From positions 1-32,000 of the forward strand of contig CP072208.2 of NCBI GenBank assembly GCA_015257795.3: 32,000 nt of DNA. Direction: 5' to 3'. Of this stretch, positions 2,942-22,427 are shown piece after piece. Made by a program: the position numbers and the translations under genes. A model generated the notes under the pieces. The model was not told where the DNA came from. It saw only the letters and a list, made by a program, of their open reading frames with translations, and did no database searches. How positions within the stretch are numbered: position 1 is the stretch's first letter; each line of letters starts with the position of its first letter. Source of the stretch: Candidatus Nanogingivalaceae bacterium (lineage in GTDB: Bacteria > Patescibacteriota > Saccharimonadia > Saccharimonadales > Saccharimonadaceae).

Positions 2942-2948
2942 GAATTGA

Positions 2949-3986: not shown

Positions 3987-4001
3987 TGAGGTTATTTTTT
4001 T
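3971..4001. terminator. Bidirectional intrinsic terminator between convergent recF and the T4SS operon
   Basis: Stem aacctcac (3971-3978) pairs with gtgaggtt (3986-3993). It is followed by a T-run on the + strand and preceded by an A-run, which reads as a T-run on the - strand. Confidence 0.6.
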
Positions 4002-4003
4002 GG

Positions 4004-4591
4004 TTAATCTGTAATAGGCTTTACGTTTGTTGTATCTTCTTTACATACGGCAGGGTCGCAGTAATTATATTCGAGAACTGGATTTTCTTCCTTATCGGTG
4101 TCATAAAAATAGAACTTATACCTAAATGGTGTGAAAGATTCAATTTTTACCCATAAGGTTTTTTTGTTAGTATCTAGTTCGATCTTGAAGCGATGTGTGA
4201 AGATATTAGTTTTTGGATCTGTTTTGGCTGAGTAAGAGTCTTTATACATACTTACACGCTTATAATAAGTATTGTAATTATTGCCATTAACTTTAAGCTG
4301 ATACTGTCGAACGACACTTTGAAATTCTTTATACATATTGAAATTTGCGCCGTTATTAACAAACTTTTCAAAGCCAATATACGGAACAGCATATTCTGGA
4401 AGATTTCCACCAGTTGGAGGGCCAATTACTTCGCCCGAAGCTGGATCGATCTCAGGTTTTTTGTTGGCCTCTTGCTGCTGGCGAACAACCGACCAGATTG
4501 CTAAACCAATCATGAGTGCGCTAGCAAATAGAAAGGTTATTACGATAGCTTTGATTTTCTTGTTTTTTAAAATATCTCTAAGCATATTCAA
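4004..4591 (-). CDS. Bitopic membrane protein, last gene of the T4SS-like operon (topology compatible with the VirB8/PrgL class, unproven)
   Basis: 195 aa. Single N-terminal TM (AIVITFLFASALMIGLAIWSVV), then a roughly 150-aa Tyr/Asn/Lys-rich ectodomain. AAGGAG sits 6 nt upstream of the ATG, and the gene starts 6 nt after the upstream stop. No sequence motif recognised. Confidence 0.7.
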   Translation of the reverse strand: MNMLRDILKNKKIKAIVITFLFASALMIGLAIWSVVRQQQEANKKPEIDPASGEVIGPPTGGNLPEYAVPYIGFEKFVNNGANFNMYKEFQSVVRQYQLKVNGNNYNTYYKRVSMYKDSYSAKTDPKTNIFTHRFKIELDTNKKTLWVKIESFTPFRYKFYFYDTDKEENPVLEYNYCDPAVCKEDTTNVKPITD

Positions 4592-4597
4592 CTCCTT

Positions 4598-6358
4598 TTA
4601 TTTAGTAACTCCAAATGCTGCGAAAGTCATTGAGATGACGTAAGAAGGATCATAAGGAGTGTCGTCAAGCTCTTTACGGCCAGGGTTTGCTGTGTACCAT
4701 TTTCCACCTGAGCTTTTTCGAATAACAACATAGTGGCTCGTGTTTAGGAATGGACCGGGGCCAGTTCCTGCTAACATAACCAACCCACCTTTCTTTAGGA
4801 CATCTTCAACAGCATTAACTGAAATATCAATTTTAGATTGTTTTAATCCATAATCTTGTACCATTTCAACAACTCCTAGGGTAGTTCCGTATCCGGCTTC
4901 ATAGCCCTTTTCGGCGGCCTTTTTAGCCATCTCAAGAGGGCTGATGGATTTTCCAGTAAGGGCTAGTACCATGTTGGAAACAGATGTTGGACCGCAGGCT
5001 GCGTGACACATTGTATTTCCAGGATTTTTTCCCCACTGTTCATTAGCCCATCGTGGATCGCATTGTTCGAAAACTGAGAATCCATCTGATGTTGTGTGTG
5101 ATGCGTCGGCTGAAGTCATAAACTTGCCCGAAGCAGATCCGGTTGCACCACAAGAGTCCGATGACTTAGAAGAATTATTACCACCACCATTAAGCGCTTC
5201 TTGTAGGAATTTTACATAGGCTTCCTGTCCCTCAGTATTTGGGTGAATTCCATCACCTGAGTAAAGCTTTTCGCGTCCACCATTTTTCTCGGCGTAAGCC
5301 TTCCAATCTAAAACTTTAACTTCACTATGCTTTGATGCGAATGCTGACAACTTCTTGTTGATTACTTCATAATCAGCGTTACCACCTTTCGAGAAGTTAT
5401 TTACCCAATAAATTTTCTTACCTTTTAATTTACCAAGTAGGGTTTCAGCAGCGCTTTCATCAAAGTTATCGTTAGTTCCAAGATTGATTACAACAGTATC
5501 GTTTATTTCAGCTGGGAGTTTGCTTGTTGCGGCTGCGATTGAGTCTCCGACCGTTGCTGAAACGTTCGAACCTGAGAATGTTGAAGTAAGTTTATCTTGT
5601 ACACCAACAGTAATAGAATCGCCGATGAAGGTTATTTTTCCGCTATTTGATGAACTATTCGAGCTTGAAGATCCTGAATTTGAGCTCGAGCTTGAGCTGT
5701 TTGAGCTTGATGAATTGCTTGAAGAACTTGAAGAACCTCCACCCTTACCTTTATATTTAGCAAGAATATCATTACCAACTTGCTCACCTTCTTGAATACG
5801 TCCAGGTCGCAAATCTTCACGCGGTCGTTCAAACTGAAGCGTCCAGGCTGTAGTTGCTTCTTTCACGGATTTTGCAGAACTTACGGCATTTTTTGCGGCC
5901 ACTTCTGGGCCCTCAAGTTCTGTCCATAGGAAATCTAGCTGAACACCAAGATCTGATACGGGCTTACCCTTTTCTTTGGCATAATTTTCGAGATTTGTTC
6001 GTCGTCCAAAAGACCACTGAGCAATACCATAACCAATTCCGCTACCCGCCTCATTTAAGTCAGGTTGAAAGTGGTTTGATTCACCCCAAAGGCTACCCAT
6101 AACTCCAGCAACCTGTTCATCGCTCCAACCTTTAGATTTGAAGAAGTTCCAGATTTTTTCAGCATTATCGTTTCCTTCGAGGTTCGTGGAGCCACTACCA
6201 CCACCTCCTCCGGTTCCACAATCATCACCCGCATCGTAATAGGTGATATTATTTGAATTGAAGAATTTAGCATTAAAATCTGCTTTGGCTGGAAAGCTAA
6301 TTAAATCGGCTAGCAAAATAGATACGGCTATAATTGGTAAAATTCTGATTCGTTTCAT
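4598..6358 (-). CDS. Secreted three-module cell-wall hydrolase (phage-tail-lysozyme-like + SGNH/GDSL esterase + C39-like cysteine peptidase)
   Basis: 586 aa with a signal peptide (ILPIIAVSILLADLISFPAKA). Residues ~63-185 resemble the phage tail lysozyme family (IWNFFKSKGWSDEQVAGVMGSLWGESN...GYGIAQWSFGRR...QLDFLWTEL). Ser/Asn linker at 206-240. SGNH blocks FIGDSITVG, NLGTNDN, DGIHPN. C-terminal ACGPTSVSNMVLAL ... SHYVVI matches the Peptidase_C39_2 Cys/His pattern. Confidence 0.85.
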   Translation of the reverse strand: MKRIRILPIIAVSILLADLISFPAKADFNAKFFNSNNITYYDAGDDCGTGGGGGSGSTNLEGNDNAEKIWNFFKSKGWSDEQVAGVMGSLWGESNHFQPDLNEAGSGIGYGIAQWSFGRRTNLENYAKEKGKPVSDLGVQLDFLWTELEGPEVAAKNAVSSAKSVKEATTAWTLQFERPREDLRPGRIQEGEQVGNDILAKYKGKGGGSSSSSSNSSSSNSSSSSSNSGSSSSNSSSNSGKITFIGDSITVGVQDKLTSTFSGSNVSATVGDSIAAATSKLPAEINDTVVINLGTNDNFDESAAETLLGKLKGKKIYWVNNFSKGGNADYEVINKKLSAFASKHSEVKVLDWKAYAEKNGGREKLYSGDGIHPNTEGQEAYVKFLQEALNGGGNNSSKSSDSCGATGSASGKFMTSADASHTTSDGFSVFEQCDPRWANEQWGKNPGNTMCHAACGPTSVSNMVLALTGKSISPLEMAKKAAEKGYEAGYGTTLGVVEMVQDYGLKQSKIDISVNAVEDVLKKGGLVMLAGTGPGPFLNTSHYVVIRKSSGGKWYTANPGRKELDDTPYDPSYVISMTFAAFGVTK

Positions 6359-6366
6359 TACAATAC

Positions 6367-9300
6367 TTAAGTATTTCCTTTAATTAAATCCATAGGGTTG
6401 AAGGCACCTTTTTCTCCCGGTACTCCGGTTCCCTTCTTTGTTTCAAAGTGAAGATGTTCCCCGCTTGCGTTTCCTTCTGCTCCGGTAACACCAATCTGCT
6501 GGCCTTTTTTAACTTTATCTCCTTTATGCACGCTATGGGATCGCATGTGTGAATACGTGGTGTAAATATCGCCATTATGCTTAATTGCAACGTAGTGACT
6601 ACCAGCACCCCATCCTACGGTTTCGGCGTCTCCACCGTAAACAACTTCACCGTCTGCTGCCGCATAAACTGGTGCTGCAGAGCCGAAGGTTGCACTACCG
6701 AAGTCTATTCCATAGTGTGTTGATGAGAATCCATCAAAGAATGATCTAGGTCCGAAATCTTGATCTGGCCCAACACCTTCGATTGAGTCACCATTAACTT
6801 TAACACCCTTAACTGGCCACACAAATTCTCCACTAAGTTTAGCTAGATCTGGGTCTACACCTCCTGAACTTGAGCTTGAACTTCCAGATCCGCCACCTTC
6901 GTCAGGTTTGAAATCTTCATTCATACCTTCTTCAACCCGAACATCTGTTAAGAATAGTGCGTATAGATTAGCTTTTGGATTTTTATCACTATTACAAATA
7001 GCTCCAAAGTTATCGTCATCATCATCTTCTGATGCGCCGATTGGTTTTTTGCGGTTGAAGCAATATTTTTCGTACTTTTTAAGTTCGGGACCCATTTCAA
7101 CTGTACTTAGCATATCGTCAGTATCCTCGTCTCCGGAGTTATCTTTTTCTTTTAAATCTCCGCTACTCTTTAGCTCGTTGATAACTTCATCTGTATCTTT
7201 ATCGGCTATTTTCATATCGATACCAGTATAGACATTGCAGAAAATATCAGTTGCAGCACCAGTATCTTTGATAGACTTATCTTCACAAGTGTCCATATTT
7301 GCAATAAAGTTCGCATCATTTGCAGCATGTGCGCCAGGCGTGATTGCAGCGAATGATCTTTGCGCACCACCAATAATCGAAGGCAGGAAGCCGCTGATTG
7401 AGGCTATTTGCTTTGAATAAGGTAGCATATTGCTTACAATTGAACCTAGGAATGTGTGACGAGTATTTGGATCGAACGGACTTCTTGTCTTTCGAATTTC
7501 TTCAGCATTTTCGGCAATTTGCCTTTCGGTCTCATGGTAAAAAGCAACGGCTTGTGATTTAGTTAATACTCCTCCGCTTCCGGCCATTGTGTTTTTAGAC
7601 ATCATCGCAGCAGAACCCGACATTATGGCATTACCAAAATTTTCACCTTTAGTGGAGTCGTTAAGAATTGTTCCAGTTAAACCTTGCGCAACATGCAGAG
7701 ATATCTCATCCATCGCCTTATCTTTTAAGACAGTTAAGGCAAGAGACAGTGCAACACCAACAGCCGCTCCCCAAGCTATAGATCCTAGAACTTCAGCTAC
7801 ACAGGCAGTAGTTGCGCAGGCCACGAGGCTGGCTACGACTACTGCAGCACCAACTACAGCTGTAGTAACAGTTGCAACTTTACACCCTTTACGAACCACC
7901 CAGCCAAGAGTTCCGCTAGTGAATGTATCCATTATTTTTGCTAAAGCACCAGTTATACCAACTTGATAGTCTTTTGCCGAATTATCTAATTTAGAGACGC
8001 GGTCTCCATAAGCAACAGCGCGCCAACCCTGCGAATCTGTAGCGCTTTTTCCAGGACTATTTTCTTCAGCTGAATCTGCGAAAAATGCAAAGGCCTCTTT
8101 TAATCTAGAAGTATTAGAATCGCTTTGTTCGCTGTCTTTTTTCTCGTCGGAATCTTTCTTATTAGCAATTCCCATTAAACTATTTCCTTGAGCTGTGACT
8201 TCTTCTTGGGTTGCATCACCGGACCTGATCTTTGAAGACATCGAAAGGAAAGATAGCCCAAACTGAGCAAAAACTTCAACTTTTGCTACTTTCGCAACAC
8301 TCCATCCCATAGTTACGAGTGCATACACGCCACAAATTTTATCAATTGCATTTAATGGGCCACTAAGTGTCTGACCTACACCCTTAATGGTATTTGCGGC
8401 TGCAATGGATTTTTGTCGGGCATTTTTAAAGCCCTTTTTGAGTTTATCACTATTAGATTTTAACTTATCTTTAACTGCACTCGTACCCTTATCTCCTTTT
8501 TCAACTTTACCGTCTTCTGGGTCCGGGTCACCCTTACGGCTTTTGCCGTCAGCGTCCTCTTCTTTCGAATGATCATTGGCAGTTTTTTTCATGTCCTCAT
8601 CAATTTCTTCTTCGGTTTTGCCCTTGTTATTCTTTCTCCATTTCTTGAAGCTAAACCACCCCTTAAGCTTTCGCCACTTCTTGTCTAGGAAAGATGCAAA
8701 GCGCCCGTTATAGCCACGTTTAAAAGCCTCCCGAACCTCGGGATTTTTAGTTAGCACATTTTTAATATCTGAAGATGTATTATTTATTGTAATTTCTTGG
8801 CCAGCCTTAGTGTAGGTTAAGGATTTGATTTTTTTACGACCAAAAAGGCCATCACCATCCTCTAGTTCAACTTTAAAACCAGCCTCGCGTAGATTCTTAA
8901 TATTTCGATTAGTCACTCGTGACATTCGACAAACGATTCCTGCCGTACAGTTTGCGCCCTTAACTTTAAGTTTCATAACTTTTACGCTTCGCTTGTTCAT
9001 GCTTATCGAGGCTGAGTTGAGCTTTTCGGTAATCATTTCAGTGATATGGTTCGACATCAGGGAGACCATATTAAATGTTCCGGCAAAAATTAAAGCACCA
9101 ACACCACCAATAACTCCACCAGTTGTAGCAAAAGCTCCCTTACCCTTAAAGAATGACATCGCGCGGTTTTTTGCGCCGCCTTTTGAGGCTGCATTTCGTG
9201 ATTTATGAGTTCCTCCGCCGCTAACATTATTACGCCAACCACTTGATTGAGTTGTGGTTGCGTCTTTCATGAGGGTTTCGTTATCGCTGATTCCTGAACT

Positions 9301-9486
9301 TGAGCTTGTTGCCATAGACGAATTTTCAGCGCTCGCTAAATCTGACGGATTATAGCCGTCATCACCGCGAATAACCTCAGCGTTTCCCCATCTACTTTTT
9401 GCTTTTTCTAACGCAGATTGGTTTGTGTCGCTTAAGTCGCTAAAATCAAGATTTTCATCTTGGTCAAAATCTCTTGCTGCTCCCAT
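6367..9486 (-). CDS. Large polytopic membrane protein with C-terminal M23 (LytM-type) metallopeptidase domain
   Basis: 1039 aa. Hydrophilic N-terminus, then TM segments (GGVIGGVGALIFAGTF; ICGVYALVTMGW; VTTAVVGAAVVVASLVACATTACVAEVLGSIAWGAAVGVALSLALTVL). GGGSGSSSSSSGG linker, then M23 motifs HYGIDFG and GEHLHFE. Confidence 0.85.
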   Translation of the reverse strand: MGAARDFDQDENLDFSDLSDTNQSALEKAKSRWGNAEVIRGDDGYNPSDLASAENSSMATSSSSGISDNETLMKDATTTQSSGWRNNVSGGGTHKSRNAASKGGAKNRAMSFFKGKGAFATTGGVIGGVGALIFAGTFNMVSLMSNHITEMITEKLNSASISMNKRSVKVMKLKVKGANCTAGIVCRMSRVTNRNIKNLREAGFKVELEDGDGLFGRKKIKSLTYTKAGQEITINNTSSDIKNVLTKNPEVREAFKRGYNGRFASFLDKKWRKLKGWFSFKKWRKNNKGKTEEEIDEDMKKTANDHSKEEDADGKSRKGDPDPEDGKVEKGDKGTSAVKDKLKSNSDKLKKGFKNARQKSIAAANTIKGVGQTLSGPLNAIDKICGVYALVTMGWSVAKVAKVEVFAQFGLSFLSMSSKIRSGDATQEEVTAQGNSLMGIANKKDSDEKKDSEQSDSNTSRLKEAFAFFADSAEENSPGKSATDSQGWRAVAYGDRVSKLDNSAKDYQVGITGALAKIMDTFTSGTLGWVVRKGCKVATVTTAVVGAAVVVASLVACATTACVAEVLGSIAWGAAVGVALSLALTVLKDKAMDEISLHVAQGLTGTILNDSTKGENFGNAIMSGSAAMMSKNTMAGSGGVLTKSQAVAFYHETERQIAENAEEIRKTRSPFDPNTRHTFLGSIVSNMLPYSKQIASISGFLPSIIGGAQRSFAAITPGAHAANDANFIANMDTCEDKSIKDTGAATDIFCNVYTGIDMKIADKDTDEVINELKSSGDLKEKDNSGDEDTDDMLSTVEMGPELKKYEKYCFNRKKPIGASEDDDDDNFGAICNSDKNPKANLYALFLTDVRVEEGMNEDFKPDEGGGSGSSSSSSGGVDPDLAKLSGEFVWPVKGVKVNGDSIEGVGPDQDFGPRSFFDGFSSTHYGIDFGSATFGSAAPVYAAADGEVVYGGDAETVGWGAGSHYVAIKHNGDIYTTYSHMRSHSVHKGDKVKKGQQIGVTGAEGNASGEHLHFETKKGTGVPGEKGAFNPMDLIKGNT

Positions 9487-9554
9487 TTTTTTCCTAAATT
9501 AAAACTCAAAAATTTATAAGACTATCTTAACATGTTTATGCTCATGTTTCAAGA

Positions 9555-11417
9555 CTAGAATAATTCATTCGGGTCTGCATACCCATTTGTCATTAAGTTA
9601 TCACTCTGGCGATTCTTAGAATTATTTGGACTTGTTGAAATTAACTGGTGTTCAGTATCACTGGCAATAATTTGAATATGAACGTGATTCTGTCCAGCGA
9701 AGAATAGACCTTGCCCAACTGGGAAGTTTGCAAGACGTTTACGCTCTTCTTCAGTTAATTTAAAGACATCACTCAAAACATCAACTGCGCTTGAAGATTG
9801 CTTTAGAAGTAGCTGCATTGAGCTGTTCGAAACAATCGCACGACCCATTTTTGAACCCATAAAGTCTTCAACGTCCTGAGAAATTGTAGTAAGACCAAGG
9901 TAGTATTTTCGGGCGCGTTTTGCCAAACTGAACAAAAAGTTTGCGGAATCGTCGTATTTCATTAACTGCCAAGCCTCATCAACGATCAGCATACGTTTTT
10001 TCTGTTCCGAACGCACAATATTCCAAATGTGTGAAAGCACAATATACATCGCAACTGGGCGAAGTTCATCTTCAAGGTCGCGAATATTAAATACCACCAT
10101 TGAGTTATTAATATCAATATTTGATTGTTGCGAGAAAATCCCCGCGAATGTTCCGGTGGTATATTTGCGAAGGCGTTGTGCTAAACTTGGACCGCTTCCA
10201 TCCATATGAACCAAAGTATCATAAAGATTATGGATTGTTGGCGGTGTTGAATTATGCGTTAGCGGATCAGAAGTAATTCCAGCGCGCGCATAAGTATCGA
10301 TAATCGCTTGATCAAGATCAGCTTCTTCACTCGGCGAAAGACCAATTGATTGCCCTGCACTCGTTCCGCCAAGCATTAAGCGAAATAGGCCGTGAAGTGT
10401 AACGATATTTGCGCGAAGTGCGTTGTCGGCTTCCTCGGCATCAATAACGTGTGGCAAATCGAACGGATTAATTCGCACATCAGAGTTCAAACTTAAGCGA
10501 ATGTAGCTTCCGCCAACCGCATCACTTAATTTTTGGTATTCGTTTTCTGGGTCGATAATTAAAACTTCGGCGCCCATCATCATTGTTCGAAGGGCCTCAA
10601 GCTTCACAGTGAAAGATTTACCGGCACCAGATTTCGCAAAGACCACCATGTTAGCGTTTTCAAGTGTGAAACGGTCGAAAATAACAAGTCCGTTATTGTG
10701 CATATTAACACCATAAAGAACACCATTTTCCTGCGTAAGATCGGCAGAAGTAAATGGGAATGAGGTTGAAATTGCACCCGTGTTCATGTTTCGGCGAATC
10801 TGTAATTGATCTGAAAGTTGAGGAATTGTTGCTTTCAAGCCCTGCTCTTGTTGGCTTGATGCCACTTTCGAAAATAGCATTTGCTGTCCGAGCATTGTTT
10901 CGATTTTACTTCGTACGAAGTTTAATTCATCAAGGCTATCAGCATAAATCGTTAAATAAAGTCCAAAACGGAAGAATTTTTCCGCTCCAAGCTGGAGTTG
11001 ATCTCGAAGCTCTTCGGCGTCATTTAAGGCAGCCTCGAGCGCTGGGTCACGAGTTTTACCCTTTTCATTATTAATCGAAAGGTCGGCTTCAAGCTGGGTA
11101 ACTTTTCGGCGGAGGTTTTTCATCACGATTTCGGTTTCAACTGGATAAATAAACATTGAAACATCCAAAACTTCATCAGCATTCAAGATTGGTGAAGCCC
11201 ATCCGGTGTAAAGCTGGCGTGGGTAGCCATAAACGTAGATTGTCTGGCCGTATTTTGTGCCTAAGCGAAAATAGCTCGAGTGAAATTCGAGGCTTGATGG
11301 CGCGATAAGGTCGCGTAAAGTGTTAATACCAGTTAAAAATGCTTGTTCAACCTCAGCCTGCTCTTGGGCGCGTTGCTGCGCGGCAATATCAACTGCGTCT
11401 TTTTTCTTCTTCCCCAT
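9555..11417 (-). CDS. virB4: VirB4-family T4SS ATPase (PrgJ/TcpF-like)
   Basis: 620 aa. Walker A FAKSGAGKSF, Walker B MLIVDEAWQL, LGLTTISQDVEDF motif. N-terminal IAPSSLEF...YGYPRQL region is typical of Gram-positive VirB4 homologs. The ATG lies 2 nt after the upstream stop, with GGAGGA inside the upstream gene end. Confidence 0.92.
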   Translation of the reverse strand: MGKKKKDAVDIAAQQRAQEQAEVEQAFLTGINTLRDLIAPSSLEFHSSYFRLGTKYGQTIYVYGYPRQLYTGWASPILNADEVLDVSMFIYPVETEIVMKNLRRKVTQLEADLSINNEKGKTRDPALEAALNDAEELRDQLQLGAEKFFRFGLYLTIYADSLDELNFVRSKIETMLGQQMLFSKVASSQQEQGLKATIPQLSDQLQIRRNMNTGAISTSFPFTSADLTQENGVLYGVNMHNNGLVIFDRFTLENANMVVFAKSGAGKSFTVKLEALRTMMMGAEVLIIDPENEYQKLSDAVGGSYIRLSLNSDVRINPFDLPHVIDAEEADNALRANIVTLHGLFRLMLGGTSAGQSIGLSPSEEADLDQAIIDTYARAGITSDPLTHNSTPPTIHNLYDTLVHMDGSGPSLAQRLRKYTTGTFAGIFSQQSNIDINNSMVVFNIRDLEDELRPVAMYIVLSHIWNIVRSEQKKRMLIVDEAWQLMKYDDSANFLFSLAKRARKYYLGLTTISQDVEDFMGSKMGRAIVSNSSMQLLLKQSSSAVDVLSDVFKLTEEERKRLANFPVGQGLFFAGQNHVHIQIIASDTEHQLISTSPNNSKNRQSDNLMTNGYADPNELF

Positions 11418-11419
11418 AA

Positions 11420-12205
11420 TTAAAATCCTCCTTGATTTGGATTATCACCCTCTGCTTTTCGAACAAATAAGCTTGCTGTATCACGGAAATCACCCAAAGG
11501 CTCATAAACTGCCGTATCTGGGTTATAAACATTGTAATAAAGCTCACCAAGTTCTTTCGTGCTTAACTGCACGGATTTAATTCCCATTTGATAAAGTCCA
11601 CCAGTGATTGAGTCAACGCGTTTTTTAATTTCCTCGCGCGCTTTATCCCAGGTATTTCGATCAATTTTCGAAATTTGTGCACTTGGTTTTGCGAATATTT
11701 TTCCAAAAAATCCCTTGGCTGAATCTTTAAGATTATTTAGATCACCAGTTGGGTGGTAAGGAATAACAATAAAGAAAGATTTATCCATAATATTCGCACT
11801 GCGACTCAAACTATCGATAAAGTTAATATAATCTTCCATTAAATCACCAAGAAGCATATTATCTTGAGCCATTTGAATATCGGCAAGTTTGTTTAGATAT
11901 GGCTCGATATCAACGCGTTGCGAACGAACCAAAATTTGAATTGGAAAAGTTAGCGAGTTTAAAAAGCTCTGGTAAGAATACTCCACTCCCTCACGTTCAC
12001 GAGAACTCATAAGGTCGAAGTTGATTGACTTACAAGCAATAACTGCTCGAAAGCTGCCATCGCGCATCACAACCATTCCTTCACGAAGTTCGGCAATTTC
12101 TAGCGAATTTTGTGTTGAAGTTGGGTTAGCTGGTGCATTTGAATTTGTTTTATTCTCGGCTTGGTTTGCATCCATTGCTGGATTTTTTTGATTCATGTTA
12201 TTCAT
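11420..12205 (-). CDS. Soluble T4SS-operon protein translationally coupled to VirB4 (possible detached VirB4 N-terminal-like module)
   Basis: 261 aa with no TM. Disordered N/Q/T-rich N-terminus, then a globular part (LREGMVVMRDGSFRAVIACKSINFDLMSSREREGV...FLNSLTFPIQILVRSQRVDIEPYL). Sits between the PrgI-like and VirB4 genes with 2-3 nt gaps. Function not recognised with certainty. Confidence 0.75.
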   Translation of the reverse strand: MNNMNQKNPAMDANQAENKTNSNAPANPTSTQNSLEIAELREGMVVMRDGSFRAVIACKSINFDLMSSREREGVEYSYQSFLNSLTFPIQILVRSQRVDIEPYLNKLADIQMAQDNMLLGDLMEDYINFIDSLSRSANIMDKSFFIVIPYHPTGDLNNLKDSAKGFFGKIFAKPSAQISKIDRNTWDKAREEIKKRVDSITGGLYQMGIKSVQLSTKELGELYYNVYNPDTAVYEPLGDFRDTASLFVRKAEGDNPNQGGF

Positions 12206-12208
12206 TAT

Positions 12209-13687: not shown

Positions 13688-13725
13688 TCTCTATTTTTGC
13701 CCACTTCTCCTTTATTATTAGTACA

Positions 13726-13734
13726 ATTTTAACA
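13726..13734 (-). promoter_or_regulatory. Extended -10 element (TGTTAAAAT) upstream of the T4SS operon
   Basis: The minus strand reads TGTTAAAAT about 32 nt upstream of the ATG at 13687. No good -35 element. Confidence 0.4.
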
Positions 13735-13817
13735 TATTTTTTCTAAAAAATAAAGTAAAAAAAATAGACAAAGTCGTGAATGCTGACCTGACACCTAGCA
13801 GTTTAGCTATTTCAATA

Positions 13818-13846
13818 TTGACAAGTCAGACATTTTTTGATATACT
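13818..13846 (+). promoter_or_regulatory. Promoter-like element TTGACA-N17-TATACT, divergent from the T4SS operon
   Basis: TTGACA at 13818-13823, exactly 17 nt of spacer, TATACT at 13841-13846. Confidence 0.45.
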
Positions 13847-13852
13847 TTTGAA

Positions 13853-14140
13853 AGTTATTATTTATTTTTGGGGATTTATTTACCCCAAAAAAAATAAAAA
13901 GATTTCGTCGTTTTCATATGACGAATGTCTTTTGTACATTTTCGAAAATTTAGAATTTTCTGAGAATTGAAAATACAATAAATAGTAACTCAAACAGAAA
14001 AAACCACTTCCGAAAACGGAAGCAGTTCTTTAACCGAGTAGTTCCATAAACTAGGCCAATAGTTTATGGAATGAATCACATCTCCACAGTGAGATCAATC
14101 ATTTATTGCGGTTACGCTCGTTCTTGCGTAGCCGTTTTTT
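13853..14140 (+). ncRNA. Candidate structured small RNA (~290 nt, family unknown)
   Basis: Bounded by the promoter at 13818-13846 and an intrinsic terminator at 14108-14140. Contains an 8-bp hairpin at 13866-13890, a 6-bp hairpin at 14007-14022 and a perfect 12-bp hairpin at 14042-14071. No convincing ORF or RBS lies inside. Confidence 0.3.
14108..14140 (+). terminator. Intrinsic terminator (plus strand)
   Basis: 9-bp stem, cggttacgc (14109-14117) pairing with gcgtagccg (14126-14134) with one G-U pair, then TTTTTT at 14135-14140. Confidence 0.6.
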
Positions 14141-14269
14141 ATTATCTTTATCTGGCGGTTCTTTATTTGAGTTTTTTATAAACAATTCAATCAGAACTTC
14201 CAAAATTGGATAAGCTTTTTCAAAAACACTTATCAAAAGCAAATCAATATTTATATTTGACAAATAATA

Positions 14270-14304
14270 GAAAAAAGACGGATCATTTTTTAAACCGTCT
14301 TTTT
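14270..14304 (-). terminator. Intrinsic terminator after the VirB6-like gene
   Basis: Stem agacgg (14276-14281) pairs with ccgtct (14295-14300), flanked by A-run and T-run. On the minus strand the hairpin is followed by TTTTTT. Confidence 0.65.
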
Positions 14305-14374
14305 AATTCACCCATAAGATATATGAACTCAGATTACTTTTAGACTACTGAGCGTTAAACTGTCTAAACTCTGT

Positions 14375-17077
14375 TTATTTTTTATTCTTAATATTGGTTG
14401 GTTTCCAGTTTGAACCAAGAATGGAGTCGTAGATTGCCTTATTACTCTTTTCGACCTCTTTAAGCATTTTGTGGATTTCAGATCCCTGAACTGCATTAAG
14501 CTTACTGTATTCAGCGGGGTTCTCGTTAATTGTTTTAACACTCTTGAGTGTTGACTTGAGTGTTTCATCCGACATTGCTGAAAGTGCTTTTTTATCCCAG
14601 ATGATTTTCATTGCATCATTTGAAGCTTTTATAATTTTCTCATCTGAAACATTCTTGGTGTAGTTATCATGAATAGCATTTATAACTTCTTTTGAAGTCA
14701 TGCCGTTTACTGCGATATTTTCTAAGGCCGCTCCGCCAATAAACTGAAGATCGTCTTTTTTGGTTTTCTTGAAAGCTTCAACCAAATCGCTACGATTGGC
14801 ATTTAATTCGCTACCAAGTGAAGTTTTACCGAGCGAATCTAGAGCGGTTTCGAGATTTGATGAACCCATGAATTTCTCGGCCGTTGCAGCGCGCAAATTC
14901 TTAGTAATTTCGAAATCGATTCCATCTTTTTGAATACTTTCACCCATATTTTTTGAGAAGATTTGGTTATAATCGTTGCCTGAAAAGTTGAGTGATTTTG
15001 TAAGATTTGCGAGTGATTCGACCTCTTCTTTGTTTTCTTTCGAAGCGGCCGCCATAGCACTAGCAAGTGCTGAGACTTTTCCAGATTCGCCACGAACACC
15101 AGATGCGGTATTTAATAGGTCGTTATTGTAGCGCAAATTGTTTGCCATTGCATTATTGAGTGCAATATTGTTATTTCTTTCAGCTTGCTTAAATGAAGTT
15201 GTTCTGTTTGCATCATCGATGAATTTAAGTGCCTGTGAGCCAAATTTTCCATTGAGAGTTCTTAGAGTATCATCGCTAAGATCAACAATTCCTCTAATCT
15301 TACCACTCGGATCTTTATCAAGAGTTGAACTGAGTAATTCAGATTTAATTTGTGAAACTGCCGCGCCAGATTGGGCGTTGGCACGATTCAAGGCCTCGTT
15401 AGCGAGCATTTCTTGGTATTGAGTATTTGTTCCCAAAATATGTTGCTTGCGAGCTTCGTAATATCTGTTCGAAAACGCATTTGAACCTTCTGGCATATTT
15501 TGAACGGCTTCTAAATCAGAATTCTCTTTATTCGCAAAGCGTTCTTTTTGATATGTGTCAGCAATAGATTTTGCTGAACCGATTCTTCTTGATCGGTTGT
15601 AATTCATTTGATTTAAGCGAGAACCAAGTGATGCTGGATTTTTTGCAATTCCCCGATTTCGGTACATTTCTTGATTTTCTCCAAGGAATTTCTTGGCTCG
15701 GTCAATTGGTCCTTTATTTGGATTGTTGATAATTCCAGCAAATTTACCAAGTAGACCACCACTAATTCGCATAATTGTTGGTGTAATTGCAAGTGGTACA
15801 ATCTGAACAACTGCACCTAAAAGGAAGACTAAAAAGCTTCCGTTTGAGCTAGCAATAATTGTAGTTCCAACGAGCTGTGCTCCACCAAATAGTAGGGATA
15901 TAATTGGATACATGACAAGCATTGTCGTGAATAAATCTTTCCATTTCTGGAACCATTTTTCGGTATTTGGTAGGATGTTTGCGGCGAAAGCTAAAGGTGC
16001 TAAGAAAACTAAAACAATAATAATTGCTTGACGAGCAGCTAGAATTACTAAGCCAACTACGGCTGAATAGATAACGGCAACCAAAGCGCCAAGTATCATC
16101 ATTACTGCTGCACCAGTACTTCCTGCAGTTGCTACAGATACTGTGTATGCTCCATACGCTACAACACCACTTCCACTTAAAACAGCTGCAGTCATATTTG
16201 ACCAGTCTAAACCTGAAACCTTAATCTTATTACCGCCACTATTGAAAATGCTGTTTCGAATTCCCACGAGAAGATTTTGTGCTTGGGCGCCTAAAATATT
16301 CGAAATGTCCACCAAAATTGCACAAATATAATAAGAGATATTAATTAAGATTGCTGCTACGATTAATTTTGGTAATATTTTTTTTACACCATAATTACTA
16401 ATTCCAAACCCAGTCACCTGTGAATAAATGACAAAAACAAAACCAATCACGAAAAAGATATTCGCGACATTTCGCATGTAATCCCAGACCTGGAAGAGAC
16501 CTGATTTATGGGAAGTATAAAGTGGTTGAACTCGCAAAAAAGTTTGAAGCCATTCATAAATTCCATCCATCCATTTCGAGATAGTGTTTGCAACCATACA
16601 AACCATCCAGCCACCACCGCCTTCAACGCTACAGTTTGATGTTTCTTCATCTTTTGAGGTGCCGTCAACTTTAACATCTTGCGCATCACCATCTTGTTTT
16701 AGATTTCCTAAGGCGCTCACGTCAAAAGTGTAAATTTTTCCACTAGAGGCATCGTTTTCGTCATCTAAAGCAATAACTGTGGTTTTTTGATTGTCTGCGC
16801 TGACAGATGAATTTTCTGCATAGATTTTTTTTGAACGAATTGAATCAGGATATTTCGAAGTATCAGAAACTTTTGTATAAACTTTTCCGTTGTATTTTAT
16901 ACCATTTTTTGAAGAATCTGTCCATTGAGCACCATCGAGCGCGTAAGCCAGGCTCGAACTAAAAAAGCCCAAGATTGTGACTACTGTTATAGTCGCGATA
17001 AGAAAAACTTTTCGAAAATCTTGAGTTTTTGCTTTTCTGAACCTCGTCAAGATCTGCATATGACCTGATTTTATCAT
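14375..17077 (-). CDS. VirB6/TrbL-like polytopic T4SS membrane protein with a ~460-aa C-terminal hydrophilic extension
   Basis: 900 aa. N-terminal signal/anchor (FLIATITVVTILGFFSSSLAYA), a ~150-aa ectodomain, then at least 6 TM helices between residues ~195-440 (for example IFFVIGFVFVIYSQV, LIVAAILINISYYICAILV, AIIIVLVFLAPLAFAANIL). A long helical, N/K/S-rich tail follows. The family call rests on topology and context. Confidence 0.6.
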   Translation of the reverse strand: MIKSGHMQILTRFRKAKTQDFRKVFLIATITVVTILGFFSSSLAYALDGAQWTDSSKNGIKYNGKVYTKVSDTSKYPDSIRSKKIYAENSSVSADNQKTTVIALDDENDASSGKIYTFDVSALGNLKQDGDAQDVKVDGTSKDEETSNCSVEGGGGWMVCMVANTISKWMDGIYEWLQTFLRVQPLYTSHKSGLFQVWDYMRNVANIFFVIGFVFVIYSQVTGFGISNYGVKKILPKLIVAAILINISYYICAILVDISNILGAQAQNLLVGIRNSIFNSGGNKIKVSGLDWSNMTAAVLSGSGVVAYGAYTVSVATAGSTGAAVMMILGALVAVIYSAVVGLVILAARQAIIIVLVFLAPLAFAANILPNTEKWFQKWKDLFTTMLVMYPIISLLFGGAQLVGTTIIASSNGSFLVFLLGAVVQIVPLAITPTIMRISGGLLGKFAGIINNPNKGPIDRAKKFLGENQEMYRNRGIAKNPASLGSRLNQMNYNRSRRIGSAKSIADTYQKERFANKENSDLEAVQNMPEGSNAFSNRYYEARKQHILGTNTQYQEMLANEALNRANAQSGAAVSQIKSELLSSTLDKDPSGKIRGIVDLSDDTLRTLNGKFGSQALKFIDDANRTTSFKQAERNNNIALNNAMANNLRYNNDLLNTASGVRGESGKVSALASAMAAASKENKEEVESLANLTKSLNFSGNDYNQIFSKNMGESIQKDGIDFEITKNLRAATAEKFMGSSNLETALDSLGKTSLGSELNANRSDLVEAFKKTKKDDLQFIGGAALENIAVNGMTSKEVINAIHDNYTKNVSDEKIIKASNDAMKIIWDKKALSAMSDETLKSTLKSVKTINENPAEYSKLNAVQGSEIHKMLKEVEKSNKAIYDSILGSNWKPTNIKNKK

Positions 17078-17164
17078 ATTTTAACCCTTTTGTCAATCTT
17101 TAAATTGTTTTTTCGAAATAAAACACTTGCTTTTTCCCTAAAAATGGTTTAAAGTATAATTATT

Positions 17165-17794
17165 ATGATTAAAAAAATAAAAAAAATAATTACAATTGGG
17201 CTAGTTTTGACGAGCTTTTTTGTAGCTTTTCAAACGTTTTTTGTATTCAGCAACGATGCATATGCGAAGCTACAGTATATAGATGGTAATGGTAATGCGG
17301 TCGATGCCCCTAAATCATCAAATAAGAAGAAGAAGGATAATAAAAAGAACAATTCAGGCTCTAATTCAGCACCAGCGCCTGCCCCTGCGCCCGCTCCTGC
17401 AAATTCAGGTTCAACATCTGGATCGAGCTCTAGTTCAAATTCCGGCTCCAGCTCTTCCAGCTCAAGTGATGGAGACGCGGGTGAAAACAAAGAAAATGAA
17501 GACGAAAAGGAGCCGATCGACAATACTCCGGAAGAAGTTAAAACAGCAATTCTTCCAGAAAGTTGGAAAATTGAAGATATTCTCAACATGATTCTGCTAG
17601 TTGTAACAACTGGAGTTGGAATTGCGGCCGTCGGTGCGATCGTTTATGCAGGTGTATTATATATAACTGCGCGAGATAATGCTGGGCAAGTTTCAAAAGC
17701 TAAAACAATGATCATGAATACGGTTATTGGTGTAGTTGCGTACATATTAATGTGGGCATTCCTACAATGGATTATTCCAGGAGGAGTCTTCTAA
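17165..17794 (+). CDS. VirB2/TrbC-like T4SS pilin paralog 1 (long Lys/Ser/Ala-Pro-rich ectodomain)
   Basis: 209 aa. Signal peptide ending AYA, low-complexity KKKKDNKKNN...APAPAPAPAPA...SSSSS region, and a C-terminal two-helix hairpin with the shared motif (IVYAGVLYITARDNAGQVSKAKTMIMNTVIGVVAYIL). Confidence 0.75.
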   Translation: MIKKIKKIITIGLVLTSFFVAFQTFFVFSNDAYAKLQYIDGNGNAVDAPKSSNKKKKDNKKNNSGSNSAPAPAPAPAPANSGSTSGSSSSSNSGSSSSSSSDGDAGENKENEDEKEPIDNTPEEVKTAILPESWKIEDILNMILLVVTTGVGIAAVGAIVYAGVLYITARDNAGQVSKAKTMIMNTVIGVVAYILMWAFLQWIIPGGVF

Positions 17795-18234
17795 TGAAAA
17801 AAATTTTATTGATGTTATCTATTATGCTTATGCCGATGATGTATTTTTCACAAAGCGCTTATGCAGACTCGGGATGTACTGGAAATGAAACTTTCTTTGG
17901 CCTTCCTGCTTGGTATCGCGGATTAGTTACTTCTGGCGAAAACGGCTGTCAGATTAAAGAGATTGGCCCTAATGATGCAAAGAATAAACACGAGATTACG
18001 ATAGAACAATTTGTTTGGACGGTCGTAGCAAATGTGATTGATATGGGATTTCGAATTGCAGGGTTGGTAGCGATGGCATTCATTATTTACGCGGGATATC
18101 AATATATGATTGCTGCTGGTGATCCAGGAATGCTTGCAAACGCAAAAAGGTCATTGACTAACGCGGTAGTTGGTCTAGTGATTGCAATTTTAGCATCAAC
18201 AATAGTAACATTTGTATTAGGAATTTTAGGATAA
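17794..18234 (+). CDS. VirB2/TrbC-like T4SS pilin paralog 2
   Basis: The ORF track starts at 17752. The ATG at 17794 (MKKILLML...) overlaps the upstream stop as TAATG and follows AGGAGG. 146 aa, signal peptide ending AYA, Cys pair in the mature N-terminus, two-helix core IIYAGYQYMIAAGDPGMLANAKRSLTNAVVGLVIAIL. Confidence 0.8.
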   Translation: MKKILLMLSIMLMPMMYFSQSAYADSGCTGNETFFGLPAWYRGLVTSGENGCQIKEIGPNDAKNKHEITIEQFVWTVVANVIDMGFRIAGLVAMAFIIYAGYQYMIAAGDPGMLANAKRSLTNAVVGLVIAILASTIVTFVLGILG

Positions 18235-18599
18235 TGGAACAATATATATTTTTAGCAGAAGAAAATGGATCTGGAGATAAGGGCGAAAGCACTTCAGATG
18301 GTTCAATAAATTTCGATAAATCCAAGGTATTTAATAACGTTGACACTTCAAATAAAGACAAAGCTAATGATGCTTCCCTTCAGAATGCGTTTAATACGGC
18401 ATTTATCTGGGCTGGAATAATTTGCGTTATCGTGATTGTTGTTGCGGGTTTGACGTTTGTTACCTCCTCTGGTAACCCTGGCCGAATTTCGAAAGCTAAA
18501 TCTGCGATAGTGTATGCATCTTTCGGAATTGGGATAATTGTCTCAGCAGCTTTAATTGTAAATCTCATTATTGGTGGGCTATTGAAAGGAAGTATTTAG
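18234..18599 (+). CDS. VirB2/TrbC-like T4SS pilin paralog 3 (no signal peptide)
   Basis: 121 aa. Start overlaps the upstream stop (TAATG). Acidic hydrophilic N-terminus instead of a signal peptide. Two-helix core VVAGLTFVTSSGNPGRISKAKSAIVYASFGIGIIV. Confidence 0.7.
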   Translation: MEQYIFLAEENGSGDKGESTSDGSINFDKSKVFNNVDTSNKDKANDASLQNAFNTAFIWAGIICVIVIVVAGLTFVTSSGNPGRISKAKSAIVYASFGIGIIVSAALIVNLIIGGLLKGSI

Positions 18600-19190
18600 A
18601 TGAAAAAGATTATTCTATTAAGTAGTATCTTATTCGCGTTCATGATGCCGACAAATGCATTTGCGGCGACCCCATTCGGTGCCTGTAAAAATGTTGTTTC
18701 CGGAAATACAGCTGTTTGCTCTGGAGATGCGAAAGACGCTAAAGAAATTGCCAAAAATATAATTTCGGTTCTTCTTTGGATTGTAGGAATGGCCTCGATA
18801 ATCGTAATTGTCTATTCAGGAATTACTTTTGTTACATCAGCAGGAAATCCAAGTCAAATCACACGAGCTAAAACAATGTTGCTGTACGCTGTAGTTGGTC
18901 TGGTAGTTTCGATTTTGGCATATGCAATTGTTAACTTTATCGTTGGAAGCGCGGGCGGAAGCAAAGGTGGATCCAGTGGTAGCTCCTCATCTTCTAGCTC
19001 AAGCTCTGGCTCTGGTGGTAATTCATCTAGCGGTTCGGGATCTTCTAATAAAAATTCAAATAATAATTCGCCAAATACTAAGTCTGATAATTCAAGCGGT
19101 AGCCAAGGCAACGATGGCAGACCTTCCTTCCCAGAACTTAACTCTGGAAAAAATGAAACAGGTGATAAAAGTATTTGGACAAAAATATAA
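18600..19190 (+). CDS. VirB2/TrbC-like T4SS pilin paralog 4 (Ser/Gly/Asn-rich C-terminal tail)
   Basis: 196 aa. The ATG abuts the upstream TAG. Signal peptide ending AFA, Cys pair, core VIVYSGITFVTSAGNPSQITRAKTMLLYAVVGLVVSILAYAIVNFIVG, then a ~75-aa S/G/N-rich tail. Confidence 0.8.
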   Translation: MKKIILLSSILFAFMMPTNAFAATPFGACKNVVSGNTAVCSGDAKDAKEIAKNIISVLLWIVGMASIIVIVYSGITFVTSAGNPSQITRAKTMLLYAVVGLVVSILAYAIVNFIVGSAGGSKGGSSGSSSSSSSSSGSGGNSSSGSGSSNKNSNNNSPNTKSDNSSGSQGNDGRPSFPELNSGKNETGDKSIWTKI

Positions 19191-19209
19191 AATAATTTAA
19201 GGAGAATAA

Positions 19210-19593
19210 ATGAAGAAAATTTTATTAGCATTCGGTTTAATTTTTGCTTTTGCTACCCCTATTGTTATGACATCGAATGTTCTAGATAATCAAGCCCATG
19301 CTGAGGGCGCTGCAGATTTAATTCAAAAAGGTGCGGACTCTACTGGTCAGAAAGATTCTCGATCGGCTGGTGACCTTGCTAAAGATTTCGTTAATATTAT
19401 GCTTTTTGCGGTTGGTATCTTAGCGGTTATCATGCTTATCTGGGGTGGTATCCGATATGTATTGTCGGGCGGAGATAGTGGTGCTGTTAGTTCAGCTAAG
19501 AAGACAATCCTTTATGCAGTAGTTGGCTTAATTGTCGCTATCTTAGCTTATGCTATCGTCAATTTTGTCATTACCACTATTGCAAAAAAATAA
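19210..19593 (+). CDS. VirB2/TrbC-like T4SS pilin paralog 5
   Basis: 127 aa. AAGGAGA RBS, signal peptide, core MLIWGGIRYVLSGGDSGAVSSAKKTILYAVVGLIVAILAYAIVNFV. The core closely resembles that of paralog 6. Confidence 0.85.
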   Translation: MKKILLAFGLIFAFATPIVMTSNVLDNQAHAEGAADLIQKGADSTGQKDSRSAGDLAKDFVNIMLFAVGILAVIMLIWGGIRYVLSGGDSGAVSSAKKTILYAVVGLIVAILAYAIVNFVITTIAKK

Positions 19594-19607
19594 AATTTTG
19601 GTATAAT
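19580..19607 (+). promoter_or_regulatory. Promoter of pilin paralog 6 (TTGCAA-N16-TATAAT with TGG extended -10)
   Basis: TTGCAA at 19580-19585 and TGGTATAAT at 19599-19607. The 16-mer TGGTATAATTTAAGTA is identical to the one in the dnaN promoter (1751-1766). Confidence 0.6.
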
Positions 19608-19649
19608 TTAAGTATAAAATAACTTTTTAAGAAAGGAAATTAATTTAAA

Positions 19650-20063
19650 ATGAAAAATTTTGTAAAAACAGCTTTATTAGCTGCTGTAACAGTGTTCGCT
19701 GTTGGTGCTACAACATTTGCGACTCCAGCATATGCTGCCGATTGTAAAGTTACTGGTGGTCTAAAAGCTGCCGATAGCTGTGCTAAAGGTGTTCAAGAAG
19801 AAAATGGTGGACCAACAAGCTTGTTTGACGGAGACTCACCAATTTTCACAACAGCAATCAACATTATGCTCTTCATTATTGGTATTCTTAGCGTGATTAT
19901 GCTTATCTATGGTGGTATCCGATATGTTCTTTCAAGTGGTGATTCTGGTGCTGTGACAAATGCTAAAAATACAATTATGTATGCTATTATCGGTCTTGTT
20001 ATCGCTATCTTGGCTTACGCTATTGTTAACTTCGTTATTGGATCAATTACAAATAAGAACTAA
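19650..20063 (+). CDS. VirB2/TrbC-like T4SS pilin paralog 6 (own promoter and terminator; candidate major subunit)
   Basis: 137 aa. GAAAGGAAA RBS, signal peptide ending AYA, Cys pair (ADCKVTGGLKAADSC), core MLIYGGIRYVLSSGDSGAVTNAKNTIMYAIIGLVIAILAYAIVNFVIG. Confidence 0.88.
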   Translation: MKNFVKTALLAAVTVFAVGATTFATPAYAADCKVTGGLKAADSCAKGVQEENGGPTSLFDGDSPIFTTAINIMLFIIGILSVIMLIYGGIRYVLSSGDSGAVTNAKNTIMYAIIGLVIAILAYAIVNFVIGSITNKN

Positions 20064-21511: not shown

Positions 21512-21597
21512 GAAGATAGAATCTCACCGTTTGGTGGGGTTTTATCTTTTTTTATTTTTTTGTAAATTTAAACAGCTTATGCTATAATAAAAATATT

Positions 21598-22254: not shown

Positions 22255-22257
22255 TTC

Positions 22258-22420: not shown

Positions 22421-22427
22421 TAGAAAA

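Follow-up and report, generated by a model that had tools for sequence, protein, structure and literature searches.

A chromosomal type IV secretion locus beside the presumed replication origin of a G6-type Saccharibacterium and its likely place at the host interface

The stretch analysed here, called the window below, comprises the first 32,000 nucleotides (nt) of contig CP072208.2 (forward strand, assembly GCA_015257795.3) of a Candidatus Nanogingivalaceae bacterium. Its locus at 4004-20063 is almost certainly the chromosomal type IV secretion system (T4SS) of Saccharibacteria, in the form of the G6 lineage and derived from machinery of the MPF_FATA/CD1110 type. This apparatus is already published: the lack of a relaxase, the pilin array and the position at the origin are known, so that the reading of a first-pass annotation, made from the sequence letters, is a rediscovery, and its suggestion that the architecture might be largely undescribed does not hold (PMC10633639, PMC12102498, PMC7427843). 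It is quite probable that the locus serves transport at the interface with a bacterial host. As the best overall explanation we propose a conduit leaning to uptake, with somewhat less than even confidence. The apparatus consists of a membrane translocon (PrgI/VirB3, a split VirB4 and an extended VirB6), two wall-cutting proteins, a bitopic protein of 195 amino acids (aa) and six VirB2-type pilins, encoded by seven minus-strand genes (4004-17077) followed by six small plus-strand genes (17165-20063):

4004-4591, minus strand: 195-aa bitopic protein with an N-terminal transmembrane (TM) helix (12-38), a conserved DPxSGE motif and a small alpha/beta ectodomain
4598-6358, minus strand: 586-aa secreted three-module hydrolase (Pfam, signal-like N-terminus)
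6367-9486, minus strand: 1039-aa membrane protein, a cysteine-rich scaffold of ~880 aa with a C-terminal M23 domain
9555-11417, minus strand: VirB4 ATPase core, 620 aa (NCBIfam CD1110 family model)
11420-12205, minus strand: TrsD-like protein, 261 aa (NCBIfam TrsD and VirB4 N-terminal models)
12209-13687, minus strand: PrgI/VirB3-like protein, 492 aa (PF12666 PrgI)
13688-14374: non-coding spacer of 687 nt between the PrgI start (13687) and the VirB6-like stop (14375)
14375-17077, minus strand: VirB6-like extended polytopic protein, 900 aa (TrbL at family level, hhalign)
17165-17794, plus strand: pilin 1 (PF18895, 24.3 bits)
17794-18234, plus strand: pilin 2 (PF18895, 49.4 bits)
18234-18599, plus strand: pilin 3 (PF18895, 42.8 bits)
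18600-19190, plus strand: pilin 4 (PF18895, 36.1 bits)
19210-19593, plus strand: pilin 5 (PF18895, 47.0 bits)
19650-20063, plus strand: pilin 6 (PF18895, 43.2 bits)

The first-pass annotation had counted 13 contiguous genes here, and all 13 open reading frames (ORFs) are present at these positions; its naming of PrgI, VirB4, the M23 peptidase and the three-module hydrolase is supported by profile hidden Markov models (HMMs) of Pfam and NCBIfam. It had also described gaps of 2-8 nt, with one exception of 68 nt, within the minus-strand operon. From the 195-aa gene to PrgI this is accurate (6, 8, 68, 2 and 3 nt), while the junction of the PrgI and VirB6-like genes, at 687 nt, had been overlooked. 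Related loci were collected by scanning one genome per species with VirB4, and the best 80 of 568 confirmed relatives (L001-L080) form the set referred to below.

VirB4 reaches 372 bits with the NCBIfam model “VirB4-like conjugal transfer ATPase, CD1110 family” (cut-off 325), and its translation contains the Walker A motif KSGAGKSF and the Walker B motif MLIVDEAW. With 620 aa it covers only positions 176-734 of the 752-position model and aligns with residues 209-754 of a 783-aa VirB4 of Clostridium perfringens. The neighbouring 261-aa protein matches NCBIfam TrsD (E 5.4e-8, under the curated cut-off) as well as the N-terminal parts of three VirB4 models (2-117, 19-183 and 91-241), and has a weak collinear BLASTP match to residues 35-102 of the C. 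perfringens protein. Because the smaller protein matches the VirB4 N-terminus and the larger one only the remainder, VirB4 is divided into two proteins, the 261-aa one being the TrsD-like, split-off N-terminal domain and the 620-aa one the ATPase core, an arrangement already published for TrsD (PMC12102498). This takes the 261-aa protein off the list of components for which the first-pass annotation had seen no family; the 195-aa protein and the ~880-aa scaffold, neither of which has a known fold, stay on it. A PHROGs search of the unassigned proteins returned one weak match, of TrsD to a terminase-like P-loop neighbour, which is not meaningful.

The genes for TrsD and PrgI both adjoin virB4, with 2 nt between virB4 and TrsD and 3 nt between TrsD and PrgI. 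PF12666 covers residues 5-90 of the PrgI protein (39.7 bits, cut-off 27), which has two N-terminal TM helices within a hydrophobic stretch at 22-67. Its tail is long, lineage-specific and rich in N, Q and P, and in distant relatives conservation does not extend past the first ~190 aa.

The 900-aa protein is the weakest of the assignments; that it is VirB6-like, as the first-pass annotation had it, is moderately well supported by family-level profiles. It starts with a signal or TM segment and an ectodomain in which Cys residues are conserved, continues with a TM core (~200-440) and ends in a long hydrophilic tail, with about six hydrophobic segments in all. Its own TrbL match is weak (E 0.4, profile positions 23-206 of 215); among its homologs TrbL is matched by nine of 31, with a best E of 2.9e-5, and is the sole Pfam family that recurs. 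Comparison of the family by hhalign gave a probability of 92% (E 7e-7) with the TrbL_4-hit polytopic protein of an Embleya plasmid and of 65% with the TrbL-hit polytopic protein of a Pontibacillus replicon, each encoded upstream of PrgI in a VirB4 locus, and the VirB6 profile drew nothing but low-complexity noise from PDB sequences. Other Saccharibacteria have one or two VirB6 paralogs per locus, the lineage of the window one. In the nearest relative (L001, 99% VirB4 identity) the VirB6-like gene is split into ORFs of 264 and 606 aa (2250-4931), reflecting either a frameshift or an assembly error.

All six small plus-strand proteins match T4SS_pilin (PF18895), five of them above its cut-off of 26.6 bits and pilin 1 just under it (E 3e-5), in agreement with the first-pass view of six VirB2-like pilins. 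They have the motif G..Y....G(D/N)(P/S)G....AK in common at a pairwise identity of ~25%, signal-peptide-like (Sec-type) N-termini were seen in five of six, and the VirB2-type array is transcribed divergently from the VirB6-like gene. Pilin 2 most likely starts at ATG 17794 (MKKILL...) and not at GTG 17752. Pilin 6 is preceded by its own TG-extended -10 promoter-like site (19580-19607) and is the best conserved among close relatives, with 91% identity versus 63-71% for the other pilins; it may be the major subunit. A 24-nt motif (TGGTATAATTTAAGTA...) near pilin 6 recurs with 88% identity at 1751-1774, just upstream of dnaN.

Two proteins carry wall-cutting domains. The 586-aa protein begins with a signal-peptide-like hydrophobic stretch (2-26), followed by the modules Phage_lysozyme2 (127.7 bits), Lipase_GDSL_2 (SGNH, 37.5 bits) and Peptidase_C39_2 (35.4 bits), and would have a VirB1-type function. 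The 1039-aa protein, with TM segments at ~125-144 and 534-588, ends in a Peptidase_M23 domain (residues 923-1019, 78.9 bits) whose HxxxD (HYGID) and HxH (HLH) motifs are intact; the endopeptidase looks active. The scaffold of this family lies directly after virB4 in 77 of the 80 loci and its N-terminal part has eight invariant or near-invariant cysteines. The C-terminal hydrolase, in turn, differs in type: among 32 homologs (L002-L075) it was M23 in 15, VanY in four, CHAP in four and NlpC/P60 in one, and is swapped between lineages. Pfam searches of the family gave no match outside the C-terminal hydrolase, and an AlphaFold2 model of the 1039-aa protein (mean pLDDT 62, moderate) found PDB matches to the M23 part only. 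The scaffold was also considered as a second VirB6/ConG/TcpH-like protein, this being the place of VirB6 in Tn916 and ICEBs1, and was rejected as such (hhalign to the VirB6 family, 3%).

The 195-aa protein is bitopic, as had been said in the first pass. An iterative HMM search located its family in at least 23 loci, each time at the syntenic position, and the family has 123 representatives (50% identity clusters) in 1.84 billion proteins, all of 82-257 aa. PEGA, the annotation of the corresponding SEML1_0005 of Southlakia epibionticum, is matched by two of 51 members. The AlphaFold2 model (mean pLDDT 81.7) displays the TM helix and one long helix on a six-stranded sheet, and Foldseek revealed nothing significant for it in the PDB, the best match having an E of 0.78 and the VirB8 domain of PrgL a probability of 0.07. 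The idea that this protein is the missing VirB8 has no support from Foldseek against the PDB or from sequence profiles.

In the 687-nt spacer that parts PrgI from the VirB6-like gene no ORF exceeds 64 aa, and there is no Rfam match and no tRNA. On the minus strand a terminator-like hairpin with a T-run follows just past the VirB6 stop (~14300) and another lies near 14000-14010; on the plus strand there is a strong promoter-like site at 13818-13846 (11 of 12 matches, TG) and a terminator-like hairpin at 14108-14135. The plus-strand sites could delimit an antisense small transcript of ~290 nt, and with the spacer between them the minus-strand genes would form two or more transcription units. It is common only to the closest relative, L001 (91% identity), except for 85 nt beside PrgI that are conserved more widely; other relatives have ~90-110 nt between the VirB6 and PrgI genes.

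The best 80 relatives are nearly all Saccharibacteria/Saccharimonadales, a few being unclassified or bearing other bin labels, and the window VirB4 is 80-99% identical to Saccharibacteria species representatives among them. The highest values were obtained for an uncultured Saccharibacteria metagenome-assembled genome (99%) and for Ca. Nanogingivalis gingivitcus (TM7 G6, HOT-870; 90%), and by this comparison the window can be classified as that of a G6-type (Nanogingivalis-like) Saccharibacterium. Searching with all window proteins by tblastn uncovered one kept order, namely comF, hsp20, pilins, VirB6, PrgI, TrsD, VirB4, the ~1000-aa protein, hydrolase, small protein, recF, dnaN and dnaA. Where at least 9 kb of flank was available (n=60), dnaN was found 5.3-9.2 kb from virB4 in 58 loci, each time on the opposite strand. 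Among the loci with a 10-kb flank (n=49), TrsD, PrgI and VirB6 lie upstream of virB4 in all 49 and pilins within reach in 39, hsp20 in 25 and a comF-like gene in 24; the loci without pilins in 10 kb mostly have a second VirB6 paralog, which pushes the array beyond reach.

Within this conserved layout the proteins differ widely in conservation (loci L002-L080). In distant genomes the median identity of VirB4 is 83% and that of DnaA, DnaN and RecF 47-49%, and in close genomes VirB4 has 98% against 78-93% for those three, values to be read with the fact that loci were picked by VirB4 similarity, which biases VirB4 identity upward. The envelope-exposed parts (M23 protein, VirB6 and pilins) have 25-46% identity in distant genomes. 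These values point to a much stronger constraint on VirB4 than on DnaA and to fast divergence of the exposed parts.

Neither a relaxase nor VirD4/TcpA, VirB11 or an integrase was matched by Pfam or NCBIfam models in the 27 ORFs of the window, in line with the first-pass annotation, which had seen no relaxase, coupling protein or integrase in these 32 kb; domains of VirB7, VirB9 and VirB10 were likewise absent from these searches. No att-like direct repeats surround the locus; the repeats seen were short AT-rich matches due to chance and a pair of tRNA-Ser paralogs. Since the 32 kb hold no conjugation or integration genes and no att sites, and dnaN is kept near virB4 in nearly all relatives, the earlier description of a domesticated core, not an integrated conjugative element (ICE), stands: a non-conjugative T4SS core fixed in the chromosome beside oriC is supported. 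The synteny comparison proposed along with it found the locus to be core and origin-proximal. The T4SS genes (4001-12000) have a G+C content of 0.39-0.43 and their flanks 0.30-0.35, despite the ancient fixed position, which is probably an effect of Gly/Ala/Ser-rich proteins and not of recent transfer.

The first base of the window is that of the dnaA start codon. Five DnaA boxes (at most one mismatch, one perfect) lie within 210 nt, and from this cluster to the first T4SS gene it is ~2.2 kb, as against the ~2 kb from oriC, beside dnaA-dnaN-recF, given in the first pass. The features at the two borders of the locus are:

1-1359, plus strand: dnaA (Pfam match)
1578-1787: candidate oriC, the DnaA-box cluster, in the dnaA-dnaN spacer and the first dnaN bases
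1775-2941, plus strand: dnaN (Pfam match)
2949-3986, plus strand: recF (Pfam match)
3966-3998: bidirectional terminator-like hairpin of 15 pairs, common to the recF side and the convergent 195-aa gene
20170-20637, minus strand: hsp20 (Pfam HSP20, 54.7 bits)
20727-21380, plus strand: comF-like phosphoribosyltransferase (Pfam Pribosyltran, 31.8 bits)

The minus-strand T4SS genes are oriented head-on to forks coming from the presumed origin, and opposite to dnaN in 58 of 58 related loci.

The closest described counterpart is that of Southlakia epibionticum ML1, in which Wang et al. (2023, Cell) reported “an apparent T4SS (SEML1_0006-0019)” of Gram-positive-like composition, with an essential series of pilins and without coupling and relaxase proteins (PMC10633639). 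Their transposon sequencing found most to nearly all T4SS genes essential in epibiotic co-culture, and their structure-based annotation left the counterparts of the 195-aa protein and the scaffold without function (PMC10633639). According to the S. epibionticum gene table, the T4SS comes right after dnaA, dnaN and recF and ahead of hsp20 and comF (PMC10633639). Compared with SEML1_0004-0019, the locus of the window is alike in position, gene order and strands, and the order in the window matches SEML1_0005-0021: the 195-aa gene is the positional counterpart of SEML1_0005, the 586-aa hydrolase takes the place of SEML1_0006 (two lysozyme domains and a cysteine proteinase, essential), and hsp20 and the comF-like gene follow in the order of SEML1_0020 and SEML1_0021. 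S. epibionticum likewise has a large protein (~1100 aa) ending in a peptidoglycan peptidase, a VirB4 of ~612 aa, a TrsD-like protein of ~290 aa, PrgI and six pilins.

The two loci differ in detail. That of S. epibionticum has three genes more; it includes two VirB6-like genes (SEML1_0011 and 0013) where the window has one, and the window is without the NTF2-like SEML1_0012 and the prealbumin/BT0923-like SEML1_0004. In the window hydrolase an SGNH/GDSL module stands where S. epibionticum has a second lysozyme-like domain, and the large protein ends in M23, whereas that of S. epibionticum ends in a Hedgehog/DD-peptidase (M15-like) domain. The window PrgI has an extra N/Q/P-rich tail of ~200 aa, and the 687-nt spacer after the VirB6 gene is another difference from S. 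epibionticum.

Surveying 2,474 Patescibacteria virB4 genes, Quinonero-Coronel et al. (2025, Microb Genom) described T4SSs related to MPF_FATA, with TrsD, PrgI and VirB6, rare relaxases, a location near dnaA/dnaN, VirB2 arrays of 2-11 genes (25% mean identity) and, in some classes, comF nearby (PMC12102498). From this clade the window differs in nothing of substance and is one more instance of it. The locus had been displayed earlier, as a TM7x region, across Saccharibacteria groups by McLean et al. (2020), who found the best matches of its small proteins outside the candidate phyla radiation (CPR) in Actinomycetales (PMC7427843), and the Saccharibacteria T4SS is featured in a 2025 FEMS review.

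With MPF_FATA systems of Firmicutes (CD1110/CTn2-Tn916, pGO1 Trs and pCF10 Prg) the locus has in common the CD1110 VirB4, PrgI, TrsD (pGO1) and a polytopic VirB6, and on a C. perfringens plasmid (L081) a large wall hydrolase is encoded right downstream of virB4, as in the window. In contrast to these systems, the window has no type IV coupling protein (T4CP), relaxase or accessory DNA-processing genes and no recognisable VirB8-like (PrgL/TcpC) subunit, its VirB4 is split, its chromosomal place is fixed, and it has VirB2-type pilins, without which MPF_FATA systems have been reported.

Outside the CPR, the closest VirB4 loci in PLSDB have 37-39% identity to the window VirB4. Those of an Embleya sp. 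linear plasmid (NZ_CP108778.1, L083) and of an 898-kb replicon of Pontibacillus sp. (NZ_CP062975.1, L082 4456-14009) encode one or more pilins, a TrbL-like protein of 750-780 aa, PrgI, TrsD and a short VirB4, as in the window, with one or two pilins versus six. The Embleya system, with its T4CP, relaxase-like gene and NlpC/P60 hydrolase, is probably conjugative; one unannotated ORF there matches PF18895 with 72 bits, and PrgI is apparently fused with a TrsD-like domain (L083 intervals 5595-6125 and 8383-9432 for these features). Pontibacillus has two pilins, a 1050-aa M23 protein and no relaxase nearby; the likeness of this protein to the Saccharibacteria scaffold protein is confined to the M23 domain. 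The Pontibacillus pilin-VirB6-PrgI-TrsD-VirB4-M23 cluster adjoins flagellar genes, and the virB4 of Priestia megaterium (L084 7871-12097) looks disrupted, with ORFs of 259 and 362 aa. Linked pilins in non-CPR loci weaken the published view (PMC12102498) that the pilins were taken over from diderm systems once the machinery had reached Patescibacteria.

On these grounds the following working of the apparatus can be pictured. VirB4 would supply the power by which pilins are drawn out of the membrane and polymerised, on a platform of VirB3 and VirB6, to form a pilus or conduit; the hydrolases would open peptidoglycan, probably that of the host as well as the epibiont's own, and the conduit would join the epibiont to its bacterial host and let macromolecules pass between them. 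The slow evolution of VirB4, the divergence of the exposed parts and the swapped hydrolases count for such a role at the host interface, and a conduit moving macromolecules would account for the fact that epibiotic growth requires the orthologous locus, a requirement that in S. epibionticum is independent of ComEC. In another Patescibacterium, one that takes up host RNA, tubular structures, maybe T4SS pili, extend to the host envelope.

T4SSs without a T4CP are known. Bordetella Ptl, Brucella VirB, Helicobacter ComB and archaeal Ced have no VirD4-type receptor and no relaxase; ComB and Ced are importers, and the bacterial examples belong to diderms and possess outer-membrane cores of VirB7/9/10. 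None of these systems is known to be essential for growth. In sequence they resemble the window only in the VirB4 ATPase fold, and the CedB match (E 5e-12) is far under the cut-off. The direction of transport is the least certain point of our proposal. Uptake of host material, be it nucleic acids or other building blocks, seems somewhat more likely than effector injection, because no T4CP receptor is seen and the T4CP-less precedents either import (ComB and Ced) or need a periplasmic intermediate (Ptl); uptake as such is put forward tentatively, at odds a little below those given to the explanation as a whole.

Several points weigh against the proposal of a conduit leaning to uptake. Wang et al. 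favoured protein export “or an alternative capacity” (PMC10633639), and a VirD4-like gene, though non-essential, exists elsewhere in the S. epibionticum genome (PMC12102498). No VirB8-like subunit (PrgL/TcpC) was found in the locus, and with a ~880-aa scaffold of no known fold the model of the apparatus is incomplete. The hydrolase domains could vary with the wall of the epibiont itself and not with that of the host, and part of the contrast between VirB4 and DnaA could come from the selection bias named above.

The strongest competitor is an effector or toxin injector that exports proteins into or onto the host, for which the killing T4SSs of Xanthomonas, Ptl and Brucella would be the models; we regard it as rather unlikely. 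Nearly all characterised T4SSs export, this was the proposal of Wang et al. (PMC10633639), and McLean et al. likened the locus to ptx/ptl (PMC7427843), but the small proteins of the “secreted array” are pilins and not toxin subunits. An arms race would fit the fast-evolving exposed parts and the Sec-signal-bearing hydrolases of the operon could themselves be cargo; against this, the locus contains no effector-like gene or immunity pair, the window has no T4CP and S. epibionticum can do without its distant T4CP homolog. Two-step secretion of the Ptl type, moreover, works through a periplasm enclosed by an outer membrane, a compartment that monoderms do not have.

Less probable still is an organelle for adhesion or contact only, in which pilus and hydrolases anchor the epibiont in the host wall and no substrate passes. 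Six variable pilins resemble the antigenic or host-range variation of adhesive pili, and the adhesins otherwise used by Gram-positive T4SSs are absent (PMC12102498). Host adhesion is, however, already served by type IV pili in Saccharibacteria, and a highly conserved VirB4 with intact Walker motifs, together with VirB3 and VirB6, fits a translocon better than a fibre, even if VirB4 is needed for pilus biogenesis as well.

ComB-like DNA uptake for natural transformation, in concert with the neighbouring comF-like gene, had been one of the roles suggested in the first pass; it is now disfavoured, largely refuted for the essential function and in our view very improbable. The lack of a relaxase and T4CP is as in ComB, the comF-like phosphoribosyltransferase gene lies 0.7 kb away and is a neighbour in about half of the relatives, and there are weak NCBIfam matches to the archaeal DNA importers CedB and CedD. 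These matches are far under the cut-offs and reflect a shared ATPase fold, though, homologs of VirB7, VirB9 and VirB10 are missing, and competence of S. epibionticum needs type IV pili and ComEC: a comEC deletion is viable and loses competence while the T4SS is essential, and the comF-like SEML1_0021 is non-essential. That the locus is an ICE or its recent remnant, with relaxase, T4CP and integrase beyond the window, is scarcely credible. In its favour are the name of the VirB4 family (CD1110), which refers to conjugative transposons, the T4CP and relaxase-like gene beside virB4 in Embleya, the nearest plasmid relative, and a G+C content above that of the flanks. Against it, the place next to dnaA/dnaN/recF is the same in almost all related species, the window has no integrase or att repeats, VirB4 evolves slower than DnaA, and the published survey found relaxases in no more than 103 Patescibacteria genomes and seldom close to virB4 (PMC12102498).

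To the right of the locus, hsp20 and the comF-like gene are followed by three tRNAs, a polysaccharide deacetylase, an MmeI-type restriction-modification enzyme, pgi and others. Two tRNA-Ser genes (85% mutual identity) and a tRNA-Arg (region 21422-24125) precede the MmeI-family type IIL restriction-modification gene at 24672-27494, which is complete and has five of five MmeI Pfam domains. Window genes past the DUF5673 gene (21598-22254) were not detected in related loci, whose flanks mostly stop thereabouts. Three ORFs, 24228-24620 (130 aa), 28803-29291 (162 aa) and 30871-31998 (375 aa), had no Pfam, NCBIfam or PHROGs match; about three TM helices are predicted for the 130-aa protein and a C-terminal TM helix for the 375-aa protein.

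Our analysis adds to the published picture a reduced example of 13 genes, the contrast in constraint between VirB4 and DnaA, and the exchange of hydrolases in a family of giant scaffold proteins. It also adds the observation that the order pilin-VirB6-PrgI-TrsD-VirB4 is already present on plasmids of Actinobacteria and Firmicutes, which bears on the origin of the pilins. More speculatively, and we think this unlikely as a whole, the G6 locus may be the smallest working Patescibacteria T4SS, comprising 13 genes with one VirB6 and lacking both an NTF2/VirB8-like protein and a T4CP within the locus, and may work as a feeding conduit for the import of host macromolecules, with the ultra-conserved split VirB4 as its invariant motor. 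If so, host range would be set by the exposed parts, that is the six pilins, the swappable hydrolase, the multi-module hydrolase and the 195-aa protein, and the ~880-aa cysteine-rich scaffold would be a new class of T4SS subunit. No T4SS other than that of Saccharibacteria is known to be indispensable for the growth of its owner, a property known from transposon sequencing in S. epibionticum ML1 alone, and VirB2 pilins have been reported for no other monoderm T4SS, the monoderm plasmid relatives described above aside. Ultrasmall epibionts may draw on their hosts by way of this system.

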